Below, in pieces: positions 58,236 to 64,000 of a stretch of DNA of 64,000 nt; the first letter of the stretch is position 1; each line of letters begins with the position of its first letter. This DNA is from a virus. Location of the stretch: the IMG/VR virus record IMGVR_UViG_3300013137_000010, positions 1 to 64,000 of that record. The stretch is one strand, 5' to 3'. Position numbers and translations under genes: made by a program. The notes beneath the pieces are model-generated. The model was given only the letters and a program-made list of their open reading frames with translations, made no database searches and was not told where the DNA came from.

Positions 58236-58495
58236 AATACTTAAATAAAATAAATGAGACAATAGAAAATAAAAAACTCGTAATAATTTCTGGAGATGAT
58301 TGGGAAGGTATTTATATTGATGGTAAATTAATTGATGAAGGACATAGTATAGACTGGAGATTTGTATTAAAAGTATTGGGTTATAATATTAGTGGTACTT
58401 ACATAGAGGATGAAGAATTTTGGGAGATTGGTAATTTACCAGATAAATTAGAAGATTTAGAAGTAATATTAAATTCTAAAAAATATAATTTATAA
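58232..58495 (+). CDS. Small hypothetical protein (MKYLNKINE leader, SKKYNL C-terminus)
   Basis: 87-aa ORF; DDWEGIYIDGKL. Confidence 0.75.
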   Translation: MKYLNKINETIENKKLVIISGDDWEGIYIDGKLIDEGHSIDWRFVLKVLGYNISGTYIEDEEFWEIGNLPDKLEDLEVILNSKKYNL

Positions 58496-58710
58496 AAACA
58501 CCGCAAAAAATAAACTTTTTTTATAAATTTGCGTATAAAATAGAAATTAGAAAAAAACGACATTTTTTGAGTAATATATAAGAAAAGAAAAAAATTATAA
58601 AAATTATAAAAAAATTACATTTTTAGTTTTTTATTTCGGAAAATATTTTTATCTTTGTAAAAGATTAAAGATGATAAAACAGAAACAAAAATTTTTAATA
58701 TATAAGTAAT

Positions 58711-58806
58711 ATGAAAAACTTTAGGAAAAATACAGCAGTAGCCACGACAACCCCCGTAACAGGAGGCAGACCAGTCGGATTATGCTCGGGCGTATACCTA
58801 AAGTGA
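58711..58806 (+). CDS. Putative attenuator leader peptide of the tRNA operon
   Basis: MKNFRKNTAVATTTPVTGGRPVGLCSGVYLK*, downstream of TATCTTTG (58650) and TTAATATATA (58695); overlaps the antiterminator arm. Confidence 0.75.
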   Translation: MKNFRKNTAVATTTPVTGGRPVGLCSGVYLK

Positions 58807-58869
58807 AGTATGTTTTATAGATTATAGGTAGAAACCCGAGGGCGCTAAGCGACTTCGGGTTTTGTTTTT
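58785..58869 (+). promoter_or_regulatory. Mutually exclusive antiterminator and terminator hairpins
   Basis: CTCGGG(58785)..TACCTA pairs with TAGGTA..CCCGAG(58840); alternatively AAACCCGAGG/CTTCGGGTTT (58832-58862) followed by TGTTTTT. Confidence 0.75.
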
Positions 58870-58895
58870 AATAGTGTGTTCTTTGTAGAAAATAT

Positions 58896-58970
58896 CTAGG
58901 TGCGATCCATGTGGTGTGGTTACCCGGCTTGGAACCGGGGTTATTGGAGGTTCGACTCCTCTCACTTAGA
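58896..58970 (+). tRNA. trnP: tRNA-Pro(UGG), irregular D-arm
   Basis: CTAGGTG/CACTTAG acceptor, CCCGG-CTTGGAA-CCGGG, GGAGG-TTCGACT-CCTCT. Confidence 0.8.
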
Positions 58971-58975
58971 CAACT

Positions 58976-59052
58976 GGTCCTGTAATGGCGGAGTCTTCTA
59001 AACTCTATGTGCATAATGGATGAAAATGAGAGTTCGAATCTCTCCTGGATCA
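58976..59052 (+). tRNA. Non-canonical D-arm-less tRNA-Arg(UCU)-like RNA
   Basis: Acceptor GGTCCTG/CTGGATC, 7-nt linker, GGAGT-CTTCTAA-ACTCT, 21-nt segment, canonical T-arm. Confidence 0.7.
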
Positions 59053-59058
59053 CAAATT

Positions 59059-59138
59059 GGCCCTGTAATGGCGGAGTTTCCTAAACTCTATGTGCATAAT
59101 TGGAATGAAAAATGAGAGTTCGAATCTCTTCTGGGTCA
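59059..59138 (+). tRNA. Non-canonical D-arm-less tRNA-Arg(CCU)-like RNA
   Basis: Near-duplicate of the previous RNA with loop TTCCTAA. Confidence 0.7.
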
Positions 59139-59152
59139 CAAAAATAAAGATT

Positions 59153-59374
59153 ATGAAAACAAAAAAAGTAGCAGTAAAAAAAGTAGAATCAAAAGTTTTA
59201 GCAGTAGAAATATTCTGTGAAAACTTAGAGAAAAATGTGACTGTGGATATATCTAAGTTATATTTTTTGGGTAGTGAAAGTGAGTGTGAATTGTGTGGTT
59301 CACACGGTTCTGTGAATGTTTCAGTAAATTGTGAGTGTGGTAAAAATCACAGTATTGAATTGAGTAGTTGGTAA
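59153..59374 (+). CDS. Small Cys/His-rich (zinc-binding) protein inside the tRNA array
   Basis: MKTKKVAVKK...CELCGSH...CECGKNH; start set at ATG 59153. Confidence 0.65.
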   Translation: MKTKKVAVKKVESKVLAVEIFCENLEKNVTVDISKLYFLGSESECELCGSHGSVNVSVNCECGKNHSIELSSW

Positions 59375-59406
59375 GAGTAGTTGTTCTTTGACATGTTGGA
59401 AAATTA

Positions 59407-59479
59407 GGGGGCGCATGTACCAAGGCTGGCGAGAGACATTTGCAATGTTTCTGGGAGATTTCGATTATATTCGTCTCCA
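59407..59479 (+). tRNA. trnA: tRNA-Ala(UGC), atypical D-region and weak T-stem
   Basis: GGGGGCG/CGTCTCC with G3:U70, AGACA-TTTGCAA-TGTTT, discriminator A. Confidence 0.6.
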
Positions 59480-59558
59480 CTATTTTATTATAGGGTAAAT
59501 ATTATGATACTGAAATAAAAATATTTATAGATTTAAATGAATTAAAAGAAATTTATAT

Positions 59559-59632
59559 GGGTTGTGTAGTGTAACCTGCTTAGCACGAAACACTTGCAAT
59601 GTTTAAGAGGAGTTGAAATCTCACACGATCCA
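59559..59632 (+). tRNA. trnA: tRNA-Ala(UGC), 8-bp acceptor stem
   Basis: GGGTTGTG/CACGATCC with G3:U70, AAACA-CTTGCAA-TGTTT, T-stem G-GAG/CTC-A. Confidence 0.8.
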
Positions 59633-59676
59633 CATATCCGGGATGATCCTCTGTTGTATCGCAGAGCCCGGTCCAT

Positions 59677-59749
59677 GCGATTGTAGTTCAGTTGGTAGAA
59701 TACTTCCTTGGTAAGGAAGAGGTCGTGAGATCGTAACTCACCTTTCGCT
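59677..59749 (+). tRNA. trnT: tRNA-Thr(GGU)
   Basis: CTTCC-TTGGTAA-GGAAG; tandem U:U in the acceptor; T-loop ATCGTAA. Confidence 0.85.
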
Positions 59750-59757
59750 CTAAGATA

Positions 59758-59896
59758 AAGAATACATACAGCAACAAAAAAATGCATGGTTAGCAAAAAA
59801 AGTATTCTGTTCTTAAAAAATTATCTAAAGATTACATACAGCAATCTTAAAAAAGGACCAAACTTGTAATTTGAAATTCTGAAAAAATGTAATCTG
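59758..59896 (+). ncRNA. Two ATACAGCAA-containing stem-loop elements with Thr anticodon-like hairpins
   Basis: AGAATAC..GTATTCT and AGATTACA..TGTAATCT closing stems; inner loops ATGGTTA and CTTGTAA. Confidence 0.5.
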
Positions 59897-59905
59897 TGAT
59901 AAAAT

Positions 59906-59978
59906 GCGAATGTATATCAGCGGTAGATAGTCTGGTTGCCAACCAGAAGGTTCGTGGGTTCGAATCCCATCATTCGCT
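59906..59978 (+). tRNA. trnG: tRNA-Gly(GCC)
   Basis: Canonical cloverleaf, TCTGG-TTGCCAA-CCAGA. Confidence 0.92.
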
Positions 59979-59987
59979 CAGTAAATT

Positions 59988-60061
59988 GCGAAATGTAGCT
60001 TAACGGTAAAGTATCTGGCTTCCAACCAGAGGAAGGGGTTCGATTCCCACATTTCGCTCCA
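59988..60061 (+). tRNA. trnG: tRNA-Gly(UCC), 8-bp acceptor stem
   Basis: GCGAAATG/CATTTCGC, loop CTTCCAA, T-stem G-GGG/CCC-A, encoded CCA. Confidence 0.88.
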
Positions 60062-60062
60062 T

Positions 60063-60140
60063 GCGAGCATAACTCAGTAGGTTCAGAGTACTTGTCTTAC
60101 AAACAAGAAGTCGATGGTTCGACTCCATCTGTTCGCACCA
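60063..60140 (+). tRNA. trnV: tRNA-Val(UAC)
   Basis: Canonical cloverleaf, CTTGT-CTTACAA-ACAAG, encoded CCA. Confidence 0.93.
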
Positions 60141-60142
60141 AT

Positions 60143-60226
60143 GCTGATGTAGTATAGCGGCTATTACACTGGCTTTGTAACCCAGCGTCTGAGAAGACAT
60201 CGTGAGTTCGAGTCTCACCATCAGCT
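60143..60226 (+). tRNA. trnT: tRNA-Thr(UGU) with a long variable arm
   Basis: GCTGATG/CATCAGC, loop TTTGTAA, variable arm GTCT-GAGA-AGAC. Confidence 0.82.
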
Positions 60227-60236
60227 CAAAATGAAT

Positions 60237-60403
60237 GGGAAATCAACGATGAAAAGGCGGATCGTACAGGCAACGAAAGTAATCCTGATTGGATAACGAA
60301 TTGCGGATGCACCTATAGCGACCTTATTGAGGTGGTGAAAAAATGAGCAAGGGAAGCGCGTTACTAGTTACCAACGTCGCGGGTTCGAATCCCGCATTTT
60401 CCA
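60237..60403 (+). ncRNA. 167-nt tRNA-like RNA with an Ala-type acceptor and an expanded body
   Basis: GGGAAAT/ATTTTCC-A (G3:U70), perfect T-arm GCGGG-TTCGAAT-CCCGC, several internal helices, no anticodon arm. Confidence 0.7.
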
Positions 60404-60447
60404 CAAAAAAATTAAAACTTTTTTTTTCATATTATAAAAGTAAATAT

Positions 60448-60520
60448 CGAGGATATGGTGTAACCTGGTAACACGGGGCATTTGGGATGCTCAGAAGCCG
60501 TTCAAATCGGATATCTTCGA
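60448..60520 (+). tRNA. trnP: tRNA-Pro(UGG), 8-bp acceptor stem
   Basis: CGAGGATA/TATCTTCG, GGGCA-TTTGGGA-TGCTC, T-stem G-CCG/CGG-A. Confidence 0.85.
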
Positions 60521-60546
60521 CAACTCTGATAATCAGGTATTTATAA

Positions 60547-60633
60547 GCCGAATTCCCATAGTGGTTGATTGGGCGTGACTTGTAATCACGAGGGTTTTTA
60601 TACCCCGCACTGGTTCGAATCCAGTATTCGGCT
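60547..60633 (+). tRNA. trnT: tRNA-Thr(UGU) with a long variable arm
   Basis: GCCGAAT/ATTCGGC, CGTGA-CTTGTAA-TCACG, variable arm GGGT-TTTTAT-ACCC. Confidence 0.85.
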
Positions 60634-60652
60634 CTCATACCTAATAAAAAAT

Positions 60653-60684
60653 AAAAATTCATTTCTCTCTCGAAATGAATTTTT
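60653..60684 (+). terminator. Intrinsic terminator
   Basis: aaaaattcatttc-tctctc-gaaatgaattttt. Confidence 0.7.
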
Positions 60685-60719
60685 GACTTAAAAATATTTA
60701 TATATACAAATAAAAAAGT

Positions 60720-61391
60720 ATGAAGTGGTCTGAAGAAGAAGAAAATGATTTAATTTCTTTATTAGAAAATGGATTTACATATTTGGATATATCTATTAAA
60801 TTAAATCGAACTAAAAAAAGTGTTAAAGAAAAAGCTAATAAGTGTGGACTTAATTTTAAGTCTTTCCTTAAAAAGGAGGCAAATAAATGCTTAGAGTGTA
60901 ATAAAGATATTGAAAAAAATAAAAAATTCTGTTCATCATCATGTTCTGCAAAACATAACAATAAAAAAAGAATTCACAAAGAATCAAATTGTATAGTTTG
61001 TGGAAACAAAACCAAAAAGTTTGGATACAAATTTTGTTCTAATAAATGTCAAATAGAACATCAATATGCTGTATATATTCAGAAGTGGAAAAATGATGAA
61101 GTTGATGGTGTGTCTGGTGAATATGGAACATCAAGATATATAAAAAAATATTTATTTGAAAAGTTTAATGGAAAATGTACGAGATGTGGATGGGGTGAAA
61201 AAAATCAATATACAGGTAATATTCCATTAGAGATAGAGCATAAAGATGGCAATAGTAAAAATAATAAAGAAGAAAATTTAACTCTATTATGTCCTAATTG
61301 TCATTCTTTAACAGAAACATATAAGGGTGCAAATAGAGGAAATGGTAGATATAATAGGCGAGAAAGATATAAAGATAAAAAATCATACTAA
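60720..61391 (+). CDS. HNH homing endonuclease inside the tRNA array
   Basis: Zinc motifs, CTRCGW and LEIEHKDGNSKNNKEENLTLLCPNCHS. Confidence 0.9.
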   Translation: MKWSEEEENDLISLLENGFTYLDISIKLNRTKKSVKEKANKCGLNFKSFLKKEANKCLECNKDIEKNKKFCSSSCSAKHNNKKRIHKESNCIVCGNKTKKFGYKFCSNKCQIEHQYAVYIQKWKNDEVDGVSGEYGTSRYIKKYLFEKFNGKCTRCGWGEKNQYTGNIPLEIEHKDGNSKNNKEENLTLLCPNCHSLTETYKGANRGNGRYNRRERYKDKKSY

Positions 61392-61672
61392 GGTCCCGTA
61401 GCTCAGCTGGATAGAGCAACAGCCTTCAAAAGGAGCTTCATAGATGAAAATGTGTGTCGAATGGTGTAAATTCAAAGAATGCTTAACAGGTAATGCTGAT
61501 GTTAACTTTGAGCGAAGTTCTTGTATAAGAAAACGTGCAGAGACTATAATCACCCACCTAAGATAGAAATATTAAGGTGAAGGCATAGTCCAGACCACAA
61601 ACAATAATTGGCAGTGAAAACTGTAGTGGTAGGCTAAGCTGTGGGTCATAGGTTTGAATCCTATCGGGATCA
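61392..61672 (+). tRNA. trnR: tRNA-Arg(UCU) interrupted by a group I intron (exons 61392-61426 and 61634-61672)
   Basis: The spliced product GGTCCCG..ACAGC-CTT|CTAA-GCTGT..CGGGATC-A is a normal cloverleaf with A20. Confidence 0.88.
61427..61633 (+). mobile_element. 207-nt group I intron (IC3-like), no ORF
   Basis: P AAATTCAAAGAA, Q AACTTTGAGC, R GTGCAGAGACTA, S AAGGCATAGTCC; U:G pair in P1 at the 5' splice site; terminal G. Confidence 0.88.
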
Positions 61673-61698
61673 CATATATTTTATATACATTTTATAAT

Positions 61699-61771
61699 GC
61701 CTTCTTAACTCAATTGGTAGAGTAGTTCTTTCGTAAAGAACAAGTTATCGGTTCGAATCCGATAGTTGGCT
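61699..61771 (+). tRNA. trnT: tRNA-Thr(CGU)
   Basis: GTTCT-TTCGTAA-AGAAC; tandem U:U in the acceptor. Confidence 0.88.
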
Positions 61772-61833
61772 CTTAAAATTCCTTAATTTTTTTATTTCAG
61801 AGTTTTTCCTTATCTTTGTAGTATTAAAACAAT

Positions 61834-61910
61834 GCCCTTGTATTGGCGGAGTTTCCTAAACTTTGTGTGCATAATGGATTAAAATGTGGGTTCAAGTCCC
61901 ATCAAGGGTA
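61834..61910 (+). tRNA. Third D-arm-less tRNA-Arg(CCU)-like RNA
   Basis: GCCCTTG/CAAGGGT, GGAGT-TTCCTAA-ACTTT, GTGCATAATGGATTAAAAT, T-arm GTGGG-TTCAAGT-CCCAT; own TATCTTTG element at 61811. Confidence 0.7.
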
Positions 61911-61956
61911 CAATTAAAAATTAAACAATTGGATTTTTTATACTATAATATAGTAT

Positions 61957-62667
61957 ATGACAAAATTCGAAAAATATTTTATAGAACAAATAGAAAATTT
62001 TAAAACTTACCACTCCAATCTTGTTACACAGATAACAGAAGATGATGTTCATAAATTGAGAACAACACTGAAAAGATTAAGAACGTTAAATATTATATTA
62101 GATGGTTTACTTTTCAGAGAAAAAGATTTTCCAACAGAACTTTCTAAATTATTCAAATCAGCAGGTGATATTAGGGACATTCATATTCAACAATCTATAT
62201 TTAGAGAATATGATGATGAGTATAATAATTATTTAATGGAGTCTTACAAAAGTAAGATTGCTAAGTTTAAAATAAATTCCACTTATCAAAAAGAACTAGA
62301 ATATCTAACGGATAAATTAAATAAAGTTAAAAACTATCACATAGAAGATGAGATAATAGGTAATATTGAGGCTAGAATAGATATTGGTCTTGATGAGATT
62401 CGTGATTTTTCAAATATTACACCAGAGAATTTACATGACATAAGAAAAAAAATTAAGCATATATTTTATATTTTTATGATGTTAGGTATAGATAAAGTGA
62501 GTAACAATTTGGATGAGTTACAGGAAACTATTGGAACTTGGCATGATTATGATGTAGCAATTAATAATATTAAAAATTTCGATAATAATTTAGAGATTAT
62601 AAAATCTCTAGAAAACAAAAGAGATTCACTATATAGCAAATCTCTTAAATTACTCAAAAAAATATAG
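61957..62667 (+). CDS. CHAD domain protein (polyphosphate-binding)
   Basis: VHKLRTTLKRLR, AGDIRD, LHDIRKKIK and LQETIGTWHD. Confidence 0.88.
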   Translation: MTKFEKYFIEQIENFKTYHSNLVTQITEDDVHKLRTTLKRLRTLNIILDGLLFREKDFPTELSKLFKSAGDIRDIHIQQSIFREYDDEYNNYLMESYKSKIAKFKINSTYQKELEYLTDKLNKVKNYHIEDEIIGNIEARIDIGLDEIRDFSNITPENLHDIRKKIKHIFYIFMMLGIDKVSNNLDELQETIGTWHDYDVAINNIKNFDNNLEIIKSLENKRDSLYSKSLKLLKKI

Positions 62668-62670
62668 AAT

Positions 62671-63471
62671 TTATAAGATACTTTCTCCTAAGAAATAATG
62701 GTTTCTTTTAGCTACTTTAATTTCACCTTTATATGATTCCTTATCAAAAAGGAGAATAGTTTGAGAACCCCATACAAAATATCCTAGTTTATCGGCAATT
62801 TCTATTTGATCACCTTTTTTAACGTAAAAATTAAAATCTTGAATAGCTGATTCTCCAACTAATAAAAAGAATACAGGCTTTTTTTCTGTTTCAAATTCTA
62901 AAAACCAAAGAGAATTCTTTCCAAATAATCCTAATTTTCTATCAACAGGTGTAATTTTTTTAAGTCTACCTGAAATTGGTGAATGAATGTTATGATAATA
63001 GCTGAGATATAATTTCATATTAATGAACCAATAGTTTTCTGGTACTCCTAAATTCATTAAGTCTTTTGCGACTTCTGTAGCACTTTTTTTTAATCTAATA
63101 ATACTTGATGTATCTTTAATTTGTCCTATTGATTCAATATTACATTCATTTGGAATTATAATTTCAGATTTTAAGGATTGTTCTTTAATATCTTTGAATT
63201 TTTCTGATGTTAAGCTTCTGTTGAAAAAATCCATAAAATTTTCGTAACCATTTGTGAACCACTCCTGGTTTACTTCTTTGGTTTTTATTCTCCAGCTCTT
63301 ATTATTTTTTGCATCTTTTTCTTTAAAACATTGAATCAGATTATTTATATTTTGTTCTCCTATTTCTTTATACTTAACATGTTTAAGTTTTCCAAGTATG
63401 TATCTTTCGTGTCCCCTTTTAGATACTAACTCAAATAACTCTTCAAGAATTTTTTCTTCTGTCATCTTCAT
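62671..63471 (-). CDS. psd: Phosphatidylserine decarboxylase-like protein
   Basis: NFMDFFNRSL, YHNIHSPISG and KKGD...LGYFVWGSQTILLF (self-cleavage GS). Confidence 0.8.
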   Translation of the reverse strand: MKMTEEKILEELFELVSKRGHERYILGKLKHVKYKEIGEQNINNLIQCFKEKDAKNNKSWRIKTKEVNQEWFTNGYENFMDFFNRSLTSEKFKDIKEQSLKSEIIIPNECNIESIGQIKDTSSIIRLKKSATEVAKDLMNLGVPENYWFINMKLYLSYYHNIHSPISGRLKKITPVDRKLGLFGKNSLWFLEFETEKKPVFFLLVGESAIQDFNFYVKKGDQIEIADKLGYFVWGSQTILLFDKESYKGEIKVAKRNHYFLGESIL

Positions 63472-64000
63472 TTGATTTTTTTTGTTATACTGATAGGTCT
63501 TTTTAAGGAATAAGGACTTATTCCAGATTTTAAAGCTAATAGAATACCAGCGGCTTCCAGATAGCTTTTAGCTTTGAAGAATTGATTGTCATTCCAAGGT
63601 AAAAGGTCTAAATCATTCTTCATTAAGTTTGTTTCATCTTCTATTGCAACAACTGGAATGTTTTGTTCTAAAGCTGCAATCAAAGGTAGACCGATACATC
63701 TATCAGGCGTTACTAATGCGCTTATGTTTCTATTTGTGATTATTCCAGATTCGTATGTCGGTGTAACTATTTTAGGCGTTAAATACATACCTTTAATAGT
63801 ACAAAATAATTCGGTGGTAGAAAGTATTTCTGGTGTTTTTCTAGGATCCACTATTTCAAAAGGATATTCTAGAAACATTTTTTCGAGAACTGGCGCATGC
63901 GCGCAAGGTATATCATAAAGATTTGATATTGTATGAGTTAAAAGGCTTTCTGCGGATCCCCACGGATTAGCCATATTTTTTTCGCTATAATAATCATCTA
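63468..64000 (-). CDS. DUF3326-like protein (5' end outside window)
   Basis: NPWGSAESLLTH, PCAHAP, VDPR and SYLEAAG; the frame stays open to the window edge. Confidence 0.7.
   Translation of the reverse strand, partial: DDYYSEKNMANPWGSAESLLTHTISNLYDIPCAHAPVLEKMFLEYPFEIVDPRKTPEILSTTELFCTIKGMYLTPKIVTPTYESGIITNRNISALVTPDRCIGLPLIAALEQNIPVVAIEDETNLMKNDLDLLPWNDNQFFKAKSYLEAAGILLALKSGISPYSLKRPISITKKIK

Follow-up and report, generated by a model that had tools for sequence, protein, structure and literature searches.

What is the role of a short open reading frame (ORF) that precedes a phage transfer RNA (tRNA) array and is spelled mostly in the amino acids of that array? The question is raised by the IMG/VR virus record IMGVR_UViG_3300013137_000010 (83,240 bp, 27% GC), of which the first 64 kb (64,000 nucleotides (nt), hereafter the window) were analysed. 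By arithmetic, the CheckV completeness of the record (12%) corresponds to a full genome of ~700 kb; the window belongs to a fragment from a huge phage. A blastn comparison with phage records matches the tRNA part of the locus to LR756501.1 (735,411 bp) and LR745206.1 (634,780 bp), both uncultured huge phages, here termed the 735 kb and the 634 kb phage. The Mahaphage clade holds five genomes >634 kb, for which replication in Bacteroidetes is predicted in the main text of the huge-phage paper (PMC7162821); to judge from their sizes, the two accessions are probably among these genomes. We consider it likely that the ORF (58711-58806) and the hairpin behind it constitute a ribosome-mediated leader-peptide transcription attenuator, which would gate the tRNA array.

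Leader ORF and tRNA array of the window

An earlier note, made from the sequence alone, had claimed a 31-codon ORF in front of the first tRNA gene and, in its codons 8-23, an uninterrupted run of 16 Thr/Ala/Val/Pro/Gly/Arg codons. Both are present, at 58711-58806 and 58732-58779 respectively, and the ORF lies 90 nt from the first tRNA gene on the same strand. The segment 58700-58850 is GC-rich (44-48%) compared to the background of 27%. Codons of the leader that specify array amino acids (in-set codons) end in G or C in 7 of 17 cases, with 2.2 expected from the long ORFs of the record (P=0.0036), and none ends in T, so that the GC-rich codons are indeed unusual for this genome, as had been claimed. 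Residues of the array set amount to 17 of 30 in the reading frame of the leader vs 9/30 and 5/30 in the other two frames. Neither the whole window at gathering score nor the region 58400-62100 at E<=1 yields any Rfam family at the leader (58650-58890).

Default ARAGORN detects ten tRNA genes downstream of the leader (Pro x2, Ala, Thr x4, Gly x2 and Val). According to the earlier note, these specificities and Arg are the only ones of the array; default ARAGORN calls no other on the + strand, with several tRNA-like stretches left unassigned, and Arg is recovered through Rfam, relaxed ARAGORN and the anticodon loops. The Arg-like UCU gene (58976-59052) reaches 29.5 bits in Rfam at a gathering score of 29, the one at 61834-61910 reaches 27.9 bits and stays under that score, and relaxed ARAGORN places an Arg UCU at ~58963 and an Arg CCU at ~59043. 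The anticodons of the three Arg-like genes (UCU, CCU, CCU) were taken directly from the loop sequence. In related loci, default ARAGORN does recognise homologues of these genes as tRNA-Arg.

Terminator and antiterminator

A U-tailed terminator had been claimed for 58832-58869. A hairpin (58831-58863, -19.5 kcal/mol) followed by a T-run to 58869 is found there, and among the 26 hairpin-plus-T-run sites of the 83,240 bp record it is the only one that precedes tRNA genes. If the transcript is folded as ending before the 3' arm of the terminator, the distal part of the ORF (58785-58800) pairs with 58825-58840, i.e. with a segment overlapping the 5' arm of the terminator. The claim that the 3' end of the ORF blocks the terminator by pairing agrees with this fold and with the covariation described below.

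The same arrangement occurs in front of other tRNA blocks of the two huge phages (see below). In nascent folds, the 5' arm of the terminator pairs back to the distal ORF in 10 of 11 leaders, mostly to codons 19-34, just past the regulatory run; only one leader, in the 634 kb phage, departs from this. The duplex between distal ORF and 5' arm is better than 1000 mononucleotide shuffles (P<=0.05) in 7/11 leaders.

Orthologous leaders

Orthologues were located in IMG/VR contigs through a 278 amino acid (aa) upstream protein (56-67% identity) combined with the tRNA pattern. Eight further distinct versions of the window leader are present, and all orthologue alignments comprise nine sequences (the window and these eight). 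Duplicates in IMG/VR were counted once (L027, L029 and L033 with L026, L031 with L028, L040 with L032, L036 and L037 with L034). Three loci (L024, L035, L038), in which the region is cut short or absent, were left out of the leader set, and L039, in which no leader ORF was visible up to 450 nt from the first tRNA called, was not used. Two loci brought in by an 87-aa upstream protein as probe (L021, L022) were dropped as unrelated loci without tRNA genes.

Inside the ORF all 26 gap runs of the nine-sequence alignment are multiples of three, compared to 3/21 after the stop codon; these 26 runs are not independent events, because gap runs share columns. A second small ORF (58782-58820), located behind an internal AGGAGG, was rejected, as it is not conserved in the orthologues.

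RNAalifold, applied to the nascent part of the nine orthologues, predicts the antiterminator with 10 pairs, five of them with changes on both sides. Antiterminator cells are paired in 83.0% of cases vs 23.9-50.0% with the partner slid by 1-3 columns, and part of the unpaired cells arise where the block is visibly misaligned by one column. Covariation scores 0.325 for this helix vs 0.225 +/- 0.039 in shuffled alignments, and 4/500 shuffles attain as much. The terminator forms 12 pairs in the orthologues, four of them with compensatory changes. Compensatory stem changes in relatives, which the earlier note had proposed to look for, are therefore found in both alternative structures, and within individual orthologue sequences changes in the ORF segment go together with changes in both terminator arms.

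The segment 58761-58774 (Gly-Gly-Arg-Pro codons, including AGGAGG) is identical in 9/9 orthologues at 13 of its 14 columns, synonymous sites included. This nucleotide conservation exceeds what the peptide needs; a pause site and a pairing partner are two possibilities.

Leaders and arrays across the two huge phages

Fifteen regions of the two huge phages were examined for tRNAs, whose matches lie in separate blocks (61 in LR745206.1, 66 in LR756501.1). Ten further leaders of 22-42 codons are located directly 5' of tRNA blocks, with a GC hairpin and a T-run behind each of them. Together with the window leader they share almost no sequence, and each is enriched in the amino acids that its own block serves (Table 1). 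The leader of L005 is by eye the same as in LR756501.1 and was not counted as independent.

Array sets were defined by default ARAGORN, background amino-acid usage was taken from the long ORFs of the 83,240 bp record, and start codons were excluded. The 11 leaders contain 162 own-array residues out of 318 (binomial P per leader 4e-6 to 0.07). Among all 11 arrays, the own array ranks first for eight leaders and second for three, behind another genome's orthologous array. When the five leaders of each huge phage are assigned to its five arrays, the true pairing scores higher than any other of the 120 permutations, in the one genome as in the other; the comparison of leader content with array identity in related phages, likewise suggested in the earlier note, comes out in favour of its reading. 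In the other two frames the 162/318 in-frame residues drop to 80/318 and 53/318, and this frame-specific signal disposes of a composition artefact. Standard wobble allows array anticodons to read 140 of the 162 in-set codons, and four-way U34 wobble adds 11 more.

The leader preceding five Leu tRNAs contains six distinct Leu codons in seven positions (P=0.0019). The 735 kb orthologue of the window array possesses additional tRNAs for Arg ACG and Arg UCG and its leader contains a CGC codon; the window has neither.

Synonymous codons and anticodons

The window leader possesses exact Watson-Crick complements of array anticodons at 14 of its 17 degenerate in-set codons (7.6 expected, P=0.0014) and covers 8/8 distinct ARAGORN anticodons (P=0.0057). 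Its 735 kb orthologue has exact complements at 20/25 positions (P=0.0026). Seven further orthologues, pooled, contain 88/134 exact complements vs 70.5 expected (P=0.0006), a count that is not independent because the sequences are related; individually, two of the seven fall at P<0.05. The tracking of anticodons by synonymous codons, as claimed in the earlier note, holds for the leader class of the window and not for nine other leaders, which are considered with the objections below.

Upstream and internal promoter-like motifs

Upstream of the leader, a motif composed of an A-run, CGAC, a T-run and an AT-alternating box (58547-58580) is near-invariant in the orthologous loci, and leaders of the two huge phages are preceded by similar motifs. 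It is probably a promoter or regulator site. Closer to the start codon, the motif at 58650-58659 fits TAnnTTTG, which we take to be the Bacteroidetes-type -7 promoter consensus; an aligned TTTG-containing block stands opposite to it in 7/9 orthologues. A TAnnTTTG-like motif also occurs at ~61812, before the last Arg-like gene, which may therefore have its own promoter.

GTTCTTTGA followed by a TTGAAAT-like box recurs 17-30 nt 5' of many tRNAs, mostly in the 735 kb phage. Copies of this motif type are located in the window at 58878-58886 (degenerate) and 59383-59391, and in loci L010 and L014-L019. Across the window GTTCTTTGA is not enriched (36 matches vs 30.5 expected). The motif type may represent an internal promoter or a processing signal.

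Proposed mechanism and alternative explanations

The trp/his/thr-type geometry claimed in the earlier note is present in the form of a leader ORF, a regulatory run and an antiterminator overlapping a U-tailed terminator; its 1:2 helix lacks covariation support. Under the attenuator reading, transcription would start 5' of 58711 and the leader would be translated while emerging from the polymerase. Fast reading of codons 8-23 would bring the ribosome to the stop codon, where, according to the coordinates and the usual ribosome footprint, it would cover most of 58785-58800; the hairpin 58831-58863 with its U-tail could then form and transcription would stop at ~58865, before the first tRNA. A slowly read Thr, Ala, Val, Pro, Gly or Arg codon, with the ribosome at codons 8 to ~18, would leave 58785-58800 free to pair with 58825-58840, the terminator would be prevented and the polymerase would enter the array. 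The tRNAs produced would relieve the stall, and since they are the very ones that decode the regulatory codons, tRNA supply would be under negative feedback. That the leader is translated and that transcripts end at ~58865 is our inference, and so are the switch direction and the physiological trigger. Candidate causes of tRNA depletion are the codon demand of the phage, loss of host tRNAs in infection and anticodon nucleases, the last of these being speculation. As a tentative extension, possible rather than probable, the leaders may form a modular homeostat at the level of isoacceptors, in which each array carries a sensor with its own codon roster, and cleavage of host tRNAs by anticodon nucleases or phage-driven tRNA loss would turn on the replacement array as an inducible counter-defence.

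Several points weigh against the attenuator. The whole case is in silico and built on comparison of sequences, and the reading presupposes transcription-translation coupling in the presumed Bacteroidetes host. The window leader also contains codons for amino acids outside the array (Lys, Asn, Phe, Leu, Cys, Ser, Tyr), three of its codons (GCC, CCC, GTC) have no exact array cognate and would need four-way U34 wobble, and the Arg genes are atypical, with a variable region of ~20 nt, and overlooked by default ARAGORN. Nine other leaders have no exact-codon preference, and all 11 leaders pooled reach 80/154 exact complements vs 71.4 expected (P=0.056); in most of the other leaders no preference is expected, because two-codon amino acids are read by one G34 tRNA. 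Eleven in-set Ser codons in two leaders remain unread, having no strict ARAGORN cognate; relaxed ARAGORN suggests further Ser tRNAs for both. Seven tRNA groups, most of them single genes, have no visible leader in the 420 nt 5' of them (Table 1). Structurally, the window duplex of distal ORF and 5' arm proper is no better than 1000 shuffles (P=0.287), because half of the window antiterminator lies 5' of the arm proper; support for the antiterminator there comes from the fold and from the covariation in orthologues. A 1:2 helix like that of trp, formed by codons 3-5 and the stop-codon region, is paired at 73% and shows no covariation; 314/500 shuffles reach its paired percentage and 483/500 its covariation score. 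According to the coordinates, the last 3-4 regulatory codons are ~6-18 nt from the antiterminator strand, and a stall there might mask this strand rather than free it. Finally, the recurrent pre-tRNA motif and a promoter of the last Arg-like gene could drive parts of the array and so bypass the attenuator.

Four other explanations were weighed. The lack of a supported 1:2 helix means that an untranslated leader would probably default to the antiterminator and read through, and this suits a switch that senses general translation capacity (host shut-off, ribosome-targeting toxins, an unloaded leader) with the codon roster as a secondary matter. General translational stress is also what induces the accessory tRNA operon of Anabaena, as described in the main text of its paper (PMC8421152). 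Such a general sensor is nevertheless unlikely, as it leaves unexplained the own-array wording of 11 leaders, the frame-specificity and the exact cognate codons of this leader class. The conservation of the encoded peptide in orthologues and the nucleotide-invariant Gly-Gly-Arg-Pro block would fit a functional small peptide followed by an ordinary terminator or processing signal, with no switch involved. We regard this as very unlikely, because the leaders of other arrays have no sequence likeness to it and yet share its architecture and an array-matched composition, the distal ORF segment co-varies with the 5' arm of the terminator, and 31 residues are too short for a Pfam-scale domain.

The 44-48% GC of the segment in a 27% GC genome raises the alternative of a chance ORF in GC-rich structured leader RNA, for instance a stable by-product of tRNA processing, since GC-rich codons spell Ala, Gly, Pro, Arg, Thr and Val. 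This is extremely improbable: array residues of the window are concentrated in a single frame (17/30 vs 9/30 and 5/30), the AT-rich leaders of Asn/Ile/Leu/Lys/Phe arrays match their arrays likewise, orthologue indels preserve the frame, and no Rfam family matches. Hardly credible at all is direct binding of tRNA anticodons to the codon run without a ribosome, which would stabilise the antiterminator in the manner of a T-box specifier. The enrichment of exact Watson-Crick complements of array anticodons in the window run speaks for it; against it, neither the T-box nor any other riboswitch family has a match here, the run invariably shares its frame with an ATG and with a stop codon at the antiterminator, frame-preserving indels indicate translation, and nine other leaders lack any preference for exact complements. 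Ribosome-mediated attenuation remains the reading that we prefer.

Other features of the locus

The features of the locus and the leaders of the related arrays are listed in Table 1.

Table 1. Features of the window (positions in the window) and leaders of tRNA blocks in the two huge phages.
Feature	Position	Strand	Description
Conserved upstream motif	58547-58580	+	A-run, CGAC, T-run, AT-alternating box; near-invariant in 9/9 orthologous loci
Promoter-like -7 motif	58650-58659	+	fits TAnnTTTG; ~50 nt 5' of start codon
Leader ORF	58711-58806	+	ATG, 31 codons, TGA stop at 58804-58806
Regulatory codon run	58732-58779	+	codons 8-23, 16 consecutive Thr/Ala/Val/Pro/Gly/Arg
Antiterminator 5' strand (predicted)	58785-58800	+	distal ORF, codons 25-30; from nascent-transcript fold
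Antiterminator 3' strand (predicted)	58825-58840	+	overlaps 5' arm of terminator; from nascent-transcript fold
Intrinsic terminator (predicted)	58831-58869	+	5' arm 58831-58845, loop, 3' arm 58849-58863, T-run to 58869
First tRNA block	58896-59141	+	Pro UGG (58896-58971), then Arg-like UCU and Arg-like CCU with long variable regions
tRNA genes, second stretch	59559-60634	+	Ala UGC, Thr GGU, Gly GCC, Gly UCC, Val UAC, Thr UGU, Pro UGG, Thr UGU
Last tRNA genes	61699-61910	+	Thr CGU (61699-61772), third Arg-like CCU (61833-61910); 3' of HNH endonuclease ORF
Leader His/Lys/Phe/Ser/Trp			block His, Phe, Trp, Lys, Ser; in both huge phages
Leader Asn/Leu/Met/Thr/Val/Ile/Arg			block of exactly those tRNAs
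Leader Pro/Gln/Asp			block Pro, Asp, Gln
Leader Tyr/Glu			block Glu, Tyr
Leader Ile/Gly/Ala			block Ile, Gly, Met, Ala
Leader Met/Ile/Gln/Glu			block Met, Gln, Ile, Glu
Leader Tyr/Asn/Asp/Cys/Ile			block Ile, Cys, Asp, Asn, Tyr
Leader with seven Leu codons, all six Leu codon types			block of five Leu tRNAs
Groups without a seen leader			first Met of L007; L010; L011; L012; L013; L018; L020

The Arg-like tRNA family with its odd ~20-nt variable region (58972-59141, 61833-61910) is kept across many related phage contigs. Two tRNA-Thr UGU genes of the window, 85 nt (60143-60227) and 88 nt (60547-60634) long, carry long extra arms, which are unusual for Thr, and much larger insertions occur in many tRNA-like genes of the 735 kb phage (L002 30-200). 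The array is interrupted by ORFs, among them a 73-aa Cys-rich ORF (59153-59374) with two CxxC-like pairs and no Pfam match, and an HNH endonuclease ORF (60720-61391; Pfam PF01844, E=5.5e-5). Arrays of related phages are also interrupted by Cys-rich or HNH-like ORFs. Just 3' of the array, the region 61957-63974 encodes a CHAD-domain protein, a phosphatidylserine-decarboxylase-like protein and a DUF3326 protein. Outside the window, ARAGORN calls a transfer-messenger RNA gene at record positions 81134-81507 on the - strand.

In LR756501.1, L020 (690585-690737) consists of two adjacent tRNA genes with the amber-reading anticodon CUA (labelled Pyl by ARAGORN), which raise the question of TAG read-through or recoding in this phage. 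L015 of LR756501.1 (oriented positions 1871-2242) contains a 123-aa ORF between leader/terminator and tRNA block. We take the C-terminal part of this ORF, by eye, to resemble ribosomal protein L7/L12; if this resemblance is true, the L015 attenuator would gate a ribosomal-protein-like gene too.

Significance and comparison with known systems

If the proposed attenuator is real, a textbook mechanism of amino-acid operons controls tRNA genes and makes tRNA supply self-regulating. This would explain how phages with at least 60 tRNA genes keep these silent as long as the tRNA pool of the host is adequate. The debate on the role of phage tRNAs (codon compensation vs replacement of tRNAs lost to defence) becomes testable, as the leader names the codons that are monitored, and synthetic biology would be offered natural, compact and codon-specific sensors of decoding speed. 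The literature search, with old scans outside its reach, yielded no paper in which a leader peptide controls tRNA genes or arrays, and the element would, if true, be the first cis-acting decoding-speed sensor before tRNA genes found in that search. An attenuator-like leader is said to have been reported long ago in front of an Escherichia coli tRNA-Phe gene; the search, which did not extend to old scans, did not confirm this. In the main text of the huge-phage paper (PMC7162821) the words "leader", "attenuat" and "terminator" do not occur.

Classical attenuators precede genes for amino-acid biosynthesis, transport or aminoacyl-tRNA synthetases; the genes downstream of the present leader are tRNA genes. 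Multivalent attenuators are known from enterobacteria, namely the thr leader with Thr and Ile codons and the ilvGMEDA leader with Ile, Leu and Val codons. Like these, the window element combines a short leader carrying a multi-amino-acid codon run with a terminator and a mutually exclusive antiterminator, which a ribosome at the end of the leader could cover. It differs from both in controlling tRNA genes instead of biosynthetic enzymes, so that the sensed species is also the product. In addition, up to six or seven amino acids are represented per leader, the system is phage-borne, the leader family of one genome divides the amino acids among its arrays, and the 1:2 helix is unsupported.

The pheM leader attenuator controls the pheST operon (phenylalanyl-tRNA synthetase) of E. 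coli, likewise a case of leader-peptide attenuation of a translation component that sets the supply of charged tRNA; unlike the element described here, it controls a synthetase specific to one amino acid and is part of a cellular chromosome. T-box riboswitches (presumably Rfam RF00230) bind uncharged tRNA directly and need no ribosome. They resemble the present element in reading tRNA status and in choosing between terminator and antiterminator 5' of translation-related genes, but the element here is an ORF, and at 58650-58890 no T-box match is found at either gathering score or E<=1.

The accessory tRNA operon of Anabaena sp. PCC 7120 (L-array, trn operon) is, according to two papers, silent by default and turned on when translation is impaired (PMC8421152, PMC10272220). 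[quoted passage not shown] As far as these texts go, the Anabaena operon is thus controlled at the promoter, unlike the window array, for which leader and terminator are the predicted site of control. Compared to all these systems, the window element would be a known mechanism applied to a new class of target, and its logic would be new.

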